From: Deltaproteobacteria bacterium
GTDB lineage: Bacteria > Lernaellota > Lernaellaia > JACKCT01
Direction of reading: 5' to 3'
Assembly (NCBI GenBank): GCA_027493875.1
Contig: JAOSJX010000002.1
Location: 229,349 to 293,348, forward strand
Length of the DNA: 64,000 nt
Position numbers and translations under genes: made by a program. How positions within the stretch are numbered: position 1 is the first letter of the stretch; each line of letters starts with the position of its first letter. This document shows positions 24,153-27,507 of the stretch, in pieces. The notes beneath the pieces are model-generated. The model saw nothing but the letters and a program-made list of their open reading frames with translations. It ran no database searches and had not been told where the DNA came from.

Positions 24153-24572
24153 ATGCTAACGCGACTGCTCAAACCCGTCACCGATCACGCTTACGCGCTC
24201 CTCCGCATCGTTGCCGGACTGATGTTCGGCTTTCACGGACTGCAAAAGCTCTTCGGCGTCCTGACGGAGCATCAACCGGACTTCGGCACGCAGATCTGGA
24301 TCGGGGGAGTCATCGAGTTCGTCACGGGAATTGCGATCGCGCTCGGCGCGGCGACGGCGTGGGCGGCTTTTCTCGCGAGCGGAACGATGGCGGTCGCGTA
24401 TATTCAGTTTCACTGGAAATTCGGCCTCGGCGAGCAATTTCTTCCGGCAGTCAACAAAGGCGAATTGGCGCTGCTGTATTCGTTTCTCTTTTTGTACATG
24501 GCGTGCCGCGGCGGCGGGCGTGGAGCGTGGACCGTGTCGTTCAAAAAGAGCGTTGATTTGTCGAATCAGTGA
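24153..24572 (+). CDS. DoxX family membrane protein
   Basis: ALLRIVAGLMF.FHGLQKLFG, AAFLASGTMAVAY, NKGELALLY. Confidence 0.88.
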   Translation: MLTRLLKPVTDHAYALLRIVAGLMFGFHGLQKLFGVLTEHQPDFGTQIWIGGVIEFVTGIAIALGAATAWAAFLASGTMAVAYIQFHWKFGLGEQFLPAVNKGELALLYSFLFLYMACRGGGRGAWTVSFKKSVDLSNQ

Positions 24573-24663: not shown

Positions 24664-24891
24664 GTGAAAGTACGTAGGCTTGATGTGCGTGGCCACGTCT
24701 GTCCCGATCCAACGCTGGACACACGCCGTGCCTTGCTTGAATCGGCCCCCTGGGAAACGCTGGAAGTACTCTCGGATTATTATCCGGCGAAACAAACGAT
24801 TCCACGTCTCGCCGCTCGCGAAGGATTTAAAAGCGAAGTCATCGCCATCGACGATACAACGTTCAAAGTTCTCATCCATAGGAGGCCCTAA
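24664..24891 (+). CDS. TusA/SirA-family sulfurtransferase (sulfur carrier)
   Basis: GTG start, LDVRGHVCPDP (CPxP motif), LEVLSD; 75 aa; stop overlaps the next ATG (TAATG). Confidence 0.85.
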   Translation: MKVRRLDVRGHVCPDPTLDTRRALLESAPWETLEVLSDYYPAKQTIPRLAAREGFKSEVIAIDDTTFKVLIHRRP

Positions 24892-25253
24892 TGGCACCGA
24901 TTTTGATCGCGACCACGCACGCAACCGACGATCCGACGAAAGCGTCGCTCGCCTTCGTCACCGCCGCCGGCTGTATCGGAACGGATCGCGCGTGCAGAGT
25001 TGTTTTGATCGGGGAAGGCGCTTCTCTGGCGCGCAAGGAAACGGCGGCGGCGGTGCACGGCGTCGGATTCCCTCCCCTTTCCGAACTGATTGAAAAGGTG
25101 GTGACGGCCAAAGTTCCCGTCTTCGTTTGAGGGGCTTGCGCCGTCGCCCGTGGGGTGACTGAAGAAGACCTGAAGAGCCTCAACGCTACTTTCGTGGACC
25201 CGATTTCGTGGGCCGATCTCATCGCCGAATCGTCGCACGTGGTGATGTTCTAG
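24891..25253 (+). CDS. DsrE-family selenoprotein (in-frame UGA at 25128-25130 read as Sec, UxxC motif), 120 aa
   Basis: DsrE N-terminus (THATDDPTKASLAF, LIGEG); ...VPVFV-TGA-GACAVARGVTEEDL...WADLIAESSHVVMF* in the same frame; hairpin 3' of UGA. Confidence 0.8.
25131..25165 (+). promoter_or_regulatory. Candidate bacterial SECIS element
   Basis: Stem GTCGCCC (25143-25149) / GGGTGAC (25153-25159) with G-containing apical loop 19 nt after UGA. Confidence 0.55.
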
Positions 25254-25528: not shown

Positions 25529-27507
25529 TTAATCAGTGCTCGGGCAGTAGGCGTTGTCGAAGACGTCCTCGCCGATGTTCCAGTCGCCGCTGAAATCGTT
25601 GCTGAAGGTCATCTCGTGTCCCCAGCCGCTGACCTGGAAATTGATGACAAAGTTGTTCGGCAGCATATCCACGAGGACTCGGATAAGCCGTACCGGCACT
25701 TTGAACAACGTCCCGATTTCCGTGTCGCACTGGCTGGGGATATCGCCGAATTCCAACGTCTCCCCGGTGCATGCCGCCGTGTCGCCGTTGGCCGCGGGGC
25801 TGCAGCCGTTTTGGGGCATCAGCACCGACCCGCCATTGCAGTCGTCGTTGGCGCAGTACGAATCCACCAGGAATTGCTCGACGGTCTCCATCACATCCGC
25901 TTTTTCGAGGGACACGGCGAAGTGTCCGTCTACAAACGACAGATTGGCGTCCAGGTCGTTACCCATTTTAAACTCGAATAAGACGTCCGCCGTATAGTTC
26001 AGCCCCACCCCGCAATCGGCGTGGTCTCCGACCGGGTCGAGAAATTGGAGCAGGTCATAGGTCAGCGAAGCGCCCTCCGTGGAAATACAGGGATCGTTGT
26101 AGTTCCAACTGTAAATTTCGCAAGGCGCGTCCCCGCCGAAGTTATATTGGGGGTGACTCCCCACTCGCCGCCCTGCCAATGGGTCTCCTCCAGATAGCCG
26201 TGCGTCATCATGATGTCGTACGGCTGGGTGGTGGTGTTCAGGACCCACATCGGGAGCGGCGAGTTGCCCGGATTGATGCTGGCGATCAGCAGGTTGATCA
26301 GCCAATTGTCCGAGGTCAGCCCGGAGATAAACATGGAATGGTAGGTATCCTCCAGTCCGGACAGCGAGCCGACGGTATCCACGCCGGGGGTACAGGAAAA
26401 GTCCTCCCACTCGGGGAGGTACGGAAGGTCGCCTTTGTTGACCACCGAGACCTCGCCGGTCGCCGGAACGACGTCCACCACGGCGTAGTAACTCTCGTCT
26501 TTGTTCACGGCGCCGAATCCGAATCCGCCTGTGCCGGCCAGTTCGTATTCGCTGTAGGAGAGCAAGTGACCGTTAAACAGCGCCAAGACGTTGTCGGCTT
26601 TTGACGCCAAGACTTGCGGAAGCGTCGGGTCGCCCGAGTCCTCGAGCGCCATGGGACCCGGATGGTGGCTCATGAAGATCAACTGATCGCTGGTGCCGAG
26701 GGCGTTTTCCAGGGCGGCGAGCTGGTCCTCTCCAAAGGACCCCGTGATGCCGTTTCCTTCCTGCCACCTCGGACCGGCCATGGAGTCGGCGGCAAAAAAC
26801 GTCACGCCGTTGAATTCAAACGTGTACCAGGGATCGTCCCCCGGATACATGTCTCCCCAAAGATCCTTTAGGTCGGCGCGCCTCTCGGCGCGATCGGCCC
26901 AGGTCAGCGCGGCCGTCGAATCGATGTAGCGAACCATGAAGTCCTTTTCGCCGGGGAGGATGTAGAGCGGGACGTTCAGGTCGTCGAGCATGCCCAAGGC
27001 AATCCCCGCGGCCTCCTCCCAGCCGTCCTCGACCTCGTCCTCCCAATCCGACCGCATGTACACCGCCACGTCGCCCAGCAGGACGGCGAAGTCGACGTTT
27101 GACTCGTTGTTGATGGCCGTCACGACGGCTTCCAGCTTGTCGTTCCAGCCGTAATTCTCATCGTTGATGGCCTGGGGAACGATCGTGGTGTCGCTGATAA
27201 CCACCATGCGAAACGGATCGCCGGGAGGGGTCGTATCGTCGTCGTCCCCGGTGTCGTCGTCCCCCGTGTCGTCATCGGCCGTATCGTCGTCGGACGTTGT
27301 ATCGTCGTCCCCCGTGTCGTCATCGGGAGTCGTGTCGTCGTCGGGTGTTGTATCGTCGTCGCCAGGCGTTGTGTCGTCGTCACCGACCGTGTCGTCGTCA
27401 CTGCCGCCGCTGTCATCATCGTCATCGTCGCCGCAACCGCAACCGACCGCCAAGGCAAGGGCGCCAACCAAACCGAAAAAAGCGATAAGCATGGGTATCC
27501 GCTTCAT
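25529..27507 (-). CDS. Lipoprotein: Asp/Thr-rich linker + calcineurin-like metallophosphoesterase + Cys-containing C-terminal domain (frameshift near 26170)
   Basis: Lipobox LAVGC; VVISDT, VLLGDV, LPGEKD, FMSHHP, FNGH metallophosphoesterase-like motifs; ORF 25529-26410 supplies the C-terminus. Confidence 0.7.
27230..27430 (-). repeat. Coding tandem repeat encoding (G/P/S)DDDT(T/G/A) units
   Basis: About 11 DDDT-type units; repeated GTCGTCGTCCCCCGTGTCGTCATC blocks. Confidence 0.8.

Follow-up and report, generated by a model that had tools for sequence, protein, structure and literature searches.

A predicted DsrE-like selenoprotein, encoded beside a TusA-like sulfur carrier and cut short at its UGA codon in public annotation

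A gene of the DsrE-like family at 24891..25253 on the forward strand of the window (the whole 64,000-nucleotide stretch of DNA analysed, from a deltaproteobacterial genome assembly) is, on comparative evidence, very probably a genuine selenoprotein gene with its own SECIS element. An in-frame UGA, predicted to encode selenocysteine (Sec), stands where the family carries its catalytic cysteine. A TusA-like gene lies directly upstream, and by analogy with characterised DsrE-type carriers the product is held, with moderate confidence, to act in a sulfur relay with the TusA-like protein.

The dsrE frame opens with an ATG at 24891, 5 nt after a Shine-Dalgarno motif AGGAGG read from the sequence (24880..24885, +). 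It runs for 79 codons to the TGA at 25128..25130 (+), the predicted Sec codon for residue 80, and then for 40 more codons to a TAG stop at 25251-25253. The 40 in-frame codons past the TGA read GACAVARGVTEEDL...SHVVMF, and the full product of 120 aa contains Sec80 and Cys83 in the motif U-G-A-C. The gene is present in a single copy in the window's genome. In the list of open reading frames made for the window, the frame ends at 25130. The initial annotation had described this layout, a 79-aa open frame followed by 40 codons in the same frame with no frameshift needed, and the layout is as described: one frame spans 24891-25253, and the match to the Pfam DsrE family extends through residue 120.

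Homology does continue beyond the UGA. Against Pfam DsrE (PF02635), residues 5-120 of the 120-aa product align to positions 4-116 of the 116-position profile with 56.5 bits (cut-off 22.7) and E 3.8e-15. An AlphaFold model built from a 32-sequence family alignment has a pLDDT of 96.3 and a pTM of 0.89, and its 13 best Foldseek matches (E 4e-6 to 4e-3; TM 0.69-0.81) are without exception structures of the DsrE/TusBCD/YchN type. The best among them include DsrE of DsrEFH (2hy5_A), YchN, the Sulfolobus DsrE3A protein SSO1125 (3mc3; TM 0.81) and TusD (2d1p_A). The product is thus predicted, with high confidence in the modelled fold, to be a DsrE/TusD-type alpha/beta domain. In the model, residue 80 closes a strand (77-80) and opens a helix (81-86). 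Three helices (81-86, 91-96, 104-113) and two strands (99-102, 116-119) of the predicted domain lie beyond the UGA, so a product of 79 aa would be incomplete.

The UGA recurs at related loci. A word-indexed search of 5.8 billion proteins found 325 relatives (clusters at 90% identity), 120 of which were listed, and in nearly all of those 120 the annotated length is exactly 79 aa; the expectation that standard annotation truncates the gene is therefore borne out. A scan of one genome per species yielded 38 related loci. In 35 of these, from at least five bacterial phyla, TGA occupies the same codon and is followed by G-x-C-x-x-ARGVTEEDLK and a conserved C-terminus. The metagenome-assembled genomes (MAGs) with TGA loci are labelled Chloroflexota, Acidobacteriota, Rokubacteria, Deltaproteobacteria/Anaeromyxobacteraceae and Actinomycetota, and the closest copies of the window's gene are found in Chloroflexota. 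The 35 loci come from independent assemblies, which makes a sequencing error in the window implausible as the cause. In the part of the gene past the hairpin described below, the proportions of substituted sites are pS 0.64 and pN 0.37, with synonymous sites saturated, so that dN/dS is only roughly informative.

Residue 80 varies among relatives in a manner that fits this picture. Close relatives that appear at full length in the protein database are few; their residue 80 is W, L or R, and the W ('W80') comes from a TGA that was translated with genetic code 4. When 1.84 billion representative proteins were searched exhaustively with a profile, 1571 relatives emerged. The best 150 were classed by position 80: 53 of these representative clusters stop just short of that residue, CxxC is found in 44 and SxxS in 26, and a handful show R, G, W, L or S there. 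The codon set of each of these five residues includes a one-base neighbour of TGA. More distant relatives have a cysteine opposite the TGA, for instance in ...IYA[C]GACSKARGI, or else a serine (SxxS). The initial annotation had placed the TGA at the first Cys of 'CGAC' in homologues and proposed aligning them; this holds with respect to the more distant relatives, the close ones almost all having TGA, and both the CxxC forms and the catalytic Cys of 3mc3 align there. Such Sec/Cys correspondence at codon 80 is, as an alignment pattern, the classical selenoprotein signature.

Several other members of the family merit description. In a sizeable SxxS branch (26 of the best 150 representative clusters, Dyadobacter among them), both redox residues are missing although the fold and the ARGVT motif persist. 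One close homologue (L072:254-265) reads TTG AAG GGT TGC where TGA GGN NNN TGC is found elsewhere, with a TGA one base out of frame; either two indels that compensate each other or a genuine loss of Sec may account for this. An Actinomycetota MAG (L042; JASEGT010000008.1) carries two Sec-type dsrE copies about 2.3 kb apart on a single contig (L042:3202 and L042:5470), whose SECIS regions are near-identical. A 3.4-kb contig from a MAG labelled Candidatus Hermodarchaeota archaeon (L032) also contains a tusA/dsrE(Sec) pair. In protein sequence this pair is nearly identical to that of a Desulfatibia MAG (L026), and its SECIS is of the bacterial type, within the ORF; the contig is probably bacterial and mis-binned into the archaeal MAG.

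Downstream of the UGA lies a predicted bacterial SECIS upper stem-loop (25143..25159, +). The hairpin GUCGCCC-GUG-GGGUGAC has arms at 25143-25149 and 25153-25159, which form a 7-bp stem, and a GUG loop at 25150-25152; its predicted folding energy is -11.1 kcal/mol. The initial annotation had placed a GTCGCCC/GGGTGAC hairpin 19 nt after the TGA. The hairpin is there, but the distance needs correcting, as the stem begins 12 nt downstream of the UGA and it is the loop that lies at 19 nt. Folded alone, the 63 nt after the UGA are no more stable than shuffled sequences (z = -0.56). The case for a SECIS rests on comparative evidence for that reason, a single-sequence fold giving no signal above shuffles.

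Comparison of relatives supplies that evidence. The 7-bp stem persists across 36 sequences aligned without gaps, and compensatory changes occur at three pairs: CG and GC exchange at columns 18/30 in four sequences (where UG also occurs), CG and UA exchange at columns 21/27 in two, and UA becomes CG at columns 17/31 in one. The covariation test used a 10-pair structure, the 7-bp stem with three flanking pairs added; its score of 0.152 was reached by none of 500 shuffles (0.091) and by no slid register (maximum 0.081). Silent sites tell the same story. Across 21 genes, Ala86 is GCC in 20 of 21, Arg87 is CGT in 20 of 20, and Gly88 and Val89 are GGG and GTG in 21 of 21, giving a synonymous entropy of zero at Arg87 CGT, Gly88 GGG and Val89 GTG; at every other conserved position with four- or six-fold degeneracy, these genes use two to six synonymous codons (entropy 0.7-2.3 bits). 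The silent-site constraint over the top of the stem and the loop is, judged by this codon usage, a constraint on the RNA, with the caveat that the hairpin nucleotides also code for the family motif ARGV, where protein and RNA constraints overlap. The proposal that a hairpin with a G in its loop serves as a bacterial SECIS is accordingly upheld as a prediction, the element being conserved in 36 sequences, covarying and frozen at silent sites.

In the minimal SECIS of fdhF, the upper hairpin measures 17 nt, begins about 11-12 nt past the UGA and carries G and U in a small apical loop. Like this Escherichia coli element, the window's hairpin is a stem-loop within the coding sequence, at roughly the same distance from the UGA, 17 nt long and with a small G/U loop. 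It differs in having a loop of 3 nt (GUG) and no predicted bulged U. The published description of bacterial SECIS elements in general is of a stem-loop that follows the UGA immediately and bears guanosine in a small apical loop (PMC1088965); the hairpin, lying just 3′ of the UGA with a G in its small loop, agrees with that description.

The genome also encodes the machinery to read such a codon. The assembly (5.2 Mb in 28 contigs, 62% GC, 78% complete) contains selA (569 bits; cut-off 268), a tRNA-Sec (73 bits) that ARAGORN confirms with anticodon UCA, and selD (C22:327662-328582; 363 bits), which has an in-frame TGA in the active site GAGUACK and is itself a predicted selenoprotein. The selB gene (C5:75579-77456) is recovered in three pieces and frames (208, 66 and 28 bits), with at least two frameshifts and one TAG. 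Since rpoB and rpoC are broken likewise in the same assembly, into two and five pieces respectively (both within C13:57275-65702), the breaks in selB are most simply read as assembly artefacts; on the same ground a selB pseudogene was judged improbable. The assembly has many single-base indels; substitutions were not among the errors seen, and the indels probably lower its estimated completeness. The supposition that the organism uses Sec thus finds selA, selB, selC and selD all present, with selB frameshifted. A reading of TGA as Trp or Gly (codes 4 or 25) was also rejected, given that many homologous genes have TGA as their stop codon, the GC content is 62% and the Sec machinery is complete.

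What the Sec residue might do is suggested by its position. Searched as a single sequence against the PDB, the dsrE product gave chance matches only, and a family profile was needed. With that profile, 3mc3 is the best match among PDB sequences (E 4.8e-4), the first Cys of its 'MYVCVQS...C' falling at position 80; because the two cysteines have a +8 spacing, the aligned residue is taken as the equivalent of Cys93 in Metallosphaera cuprina DsrE3A. Cys93 is the residue that carries thiosulfonate (PMC4175335), and the cysteine at this site is the one conserved across all DsrE-like proteins (PMC11094781). Sec80 therefore stands in the column of the single conserved catalytic cysteine (DsrE Cys78, DsrE3A Cys93, DsrE3C Cys84), in a protein whose closest solved relative shares only 19% identity with it.

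The neighbouring gene points in the same direction. A TusA-like sulfur-carrier gene (24664..24891, +) precedes dsrE, with a match to Pfam TusA (PF01206; E 2.6e-16) and the active-site motif C-P-D-P; its best NCBIfam match, which falls below the cut-off, is to the N-terminal domain of YedF. Its start is uncertain, GTG at 24664 being likely (75 aa) within an open frame that reaches back to 24331. Its TAA stop overlaps the dsrE ATG (TAATG), an arrangement by which dsrE is, as far as the overlap can tell, translationally coupled to it. Among the 35 related loci, at least 15 have a tusA-like gene (LDLRGKVCPxPT...DYYPA[RK]QTIP) immediately before dsrE, as do two of three metagenome contexts. No other conserved neighbour was seen in the related-locus neighbourhoods inspected. 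The recurrent pairing suggests that tusA and dsrE(Sec) form a two-gene relay.

Further from the pair, the surroundings are less uniform. A gene for a DoxX-family membrane protein (24153..24572, +; Pfam DoxX E 1e-9) lies directly upstream of tusA in the window and may belong to the same transcription unit as the pair, while no DoxX gene adjoins the pair in the other neighbourhoods examined. DoxX proteins are linked to thiosulfate and thiol metabolism. In the window, a tRNA-Asn follows the pair. On the opposite strand, at 26062-27507 (-), is a metallophosphatase-family lipoprotein-like gene with an N-terminal 'GCGCGDDDDDD' and long Asp/Thr-rich repeats. Neither sHdr nor Dsr genes occur nearby, in the window or in the related neighbourhoods examined, and the hosts of Sec-type dsrE are mostly not known sulfur oxidisers. 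The distribution is patchy, as the Sec form occurs in only one of the 17 genomes examined from the window's class; one relative has a distant CxxC form.

A two-protein chalcogen relay is the most likely function because dsrE appears translationally coupled to the tusA-like gene. In the proposed mechanism, SelB with Sec-tRNA(Sec) would recognise the 25143-25159 hairpin and insert Sec at codon 80. The Sec80 selenolate, at the N-terminus of a helix, would be the nucleophile of a DsrE-type carrier, taking up sulfane sulfur or thiosulfonate as a Se-S adduct and exchanging it with the cysteine of TusA; Cys83 lies three residues further along and could then resolve the adduct by forming a selenenylsulfide. 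We infer Sec insertion from the sequence and the machinery, and substrate and direction of transfer by analogy. The model for the latter is the DsrE3A/B/C-TusA group, in which sulfur or thiosulfonate is transferred through the conserved DsrE cysteine, from DsrE3 to TusA (PMC4175335; PMC11094781). The functional assignment draws on that analogy and on one conserved neighbour, tusA.

The dsrE product shares several features with the M. cuprina DsrE3A/TusA pair: 3mc3 (SSO1125) is the best profile match among solved structures, superposes with the highest TM (0.81) and has the Cys93 equivalent at Sec80, and its gene, too, adjoins tusA. There are also differences. In the DsrE3A subgroup the second cysteine lies at +8 (Cys93/Cys101), whereas in the window it lies at +3 (U80/C83), and Sec takes the place of Cys. 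Unlike the DsrE3A/B/C-TusA relays, window-type loci have no sHdr, lipoate-binding-protein or dsrE2 genes nearby.

The same active site could belong to a thiol/selenol oxidoreductase in place of a carrier. The UxxC pair would then alternate between a selenol/thiol and a selenenylsulfide state, reducing for instance persulfides, polysulfides or peroxides, with TusA as its substrate or redox partner. UxxC or CxxC where a helix begins is the classic design of a redox-active site, and the selenoprotein catalogue puts the family with thiol-oxidoreductase-like proteins that have a UxxC redox motif (PMC1088965, Table 3); SxxS forms, however, account for 26 of the best 150 clusters, and these retain the fold while being incapable of redox chemistry. 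JGI labels many members 'predicted peroxiredoxin', but this name is an automatic COG label, and no member of the DsrE family is known to be a peroxidase or reductase. The DsrE4 group has been proposed to detoxify reactive sulfur species (PMC11094781), yet the DsrE proteins that have been characterised are carriers (PMC4175335; PMC11094781). An oxidoreductase is considered unlikely.

A rather less probable proposal takes the pair as a selenium module. The TusA-like protein and the DsrE-like protein with its UGxC motif would be a split, Sec-containing analogue of YedF that traffics or detoxifies selenide or perselenide. YedF consists of a SirA/TusA domain and a DsrE-like domain with CGXC and is linked to SelD (PMC5322559), so that the window has the same two domains in the same order, and in both systems the DsrE-like part has (C/U)-G-x-C after a beta-strand. 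A YedF of the same class, for example, contains ...VEIVSCGTCLD..., with CGxC after the strand as in the dsrE product. Two YedF models are the best NCBIfam matches of the TusA-like protein (E 5e-9 and 1.6e-8), ahead of TusA (E 0.0067), but the scores of 34.6 and 35.6 bits are far below the respective cut-offs of 110 and 79 (TIGR03527 / NF008242). In the window the domains are two overlapping genes and not a fusion, with Sec in place of Cys. Full-length YedF is found in eight relatives of the same class and is absent from the window's genome. Homology of the DsrE part to the C-terminal domain of YedF was examined and is unsupported: hhalign of the DsrE(Sec) family against that domain, taken from a relative's YedF, gives a probability of 2.4% over 18 columns, which is not significant, and the DsrE part yields no YedF match. 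Moreover, the role of YedF itself is unproven, and Cys and Ser forms of the dsrE family are widespread. On its fullest version, the pair would be a free-standing, Sec-using counterpart of YedF for Se (or Se/S) trafficking or detoxification, spread horizontally among soil and groundwater bacteria, and the truncation of almost all public copies at 79 aa would explain why the module has escaped notice. This version is likewise regarded as improbable, and the sulfur relay with TusA is retained as the preferred reading.

That the TGA is a true stop, leaving a 79-aa product or a pseudogene, or else an assembly error for TGC or TGT, is scarcely tenable: gene callers do give 79 aa and the assembly is noisy (rpoB in two pieces, rpoC in five, selB in three), but its errors are indels and not substitutions, the TGA stands in 35 independent assemblies with conserved protein after it, the predicted fold needs residues 81-120, the hairpin appears to be under RNA-level constraint and the genome has the Sec machinery.

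As a selenoprotein, the window's gene is of a known kind. Catalogues of prokaryotic selenoproteins have included a 'DsrE-like protein' family (PF02635, UxxC) since the 2005 Sargasso Sea analysis of Zhang, Fomenko and Gladyshev (PMC1088965). A member was described in Desulfovibrio vulgaris (Zhang et al., 2006; PMC1794560), and WP_014524487.1 is the DsrE-like entry in the 2022 and 2026 catalogues (PMC9312934; PMC13188914). The statement in the initial annotation that DsrE-like proteins are among the reported bacterial selenoprotein families is correct (PMC1088965; PMC1794560; PMC13188914). Compared by description, the window's gene resembles this catalogued family in its PF02635 domain, its UxxC motif, the UGA at the catalytic Cys, the SECIS downstream and the existence of Cys homologues, and it has all the family features that can be tested from sequence. 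The branch to which it belongs, of 119-120 aa, TusA-linked and found in Chloroflexota, Acidobacteriota, Rokubacteria and Actinomycetota, is likewise set beside the catalogued DsrE-like members by description only.

The finding of a Sec-type dsrE alters no concept. It is mainly a correction of annotation: a widespread DsrE-like branch is stored with the active site and the final 40 residues missing. The branch comprises 325 clusters (90% identity) and makes up roughly a third of the best 150 representative clusters. Surveys of sulfur relays and counts of selenoproteomes in Chloroflexota, Acidobacteriota, Rokubacteria and Actinomycetota therefore miss this branch. The predicted protein also adds one more case in which Sec replaces the single catalytic cysteine of a sulfur carrier, and the two-gene system with its TusA partner would lend itself to examining what Sec contributes when persulfide or thiosulfonate is transferred.
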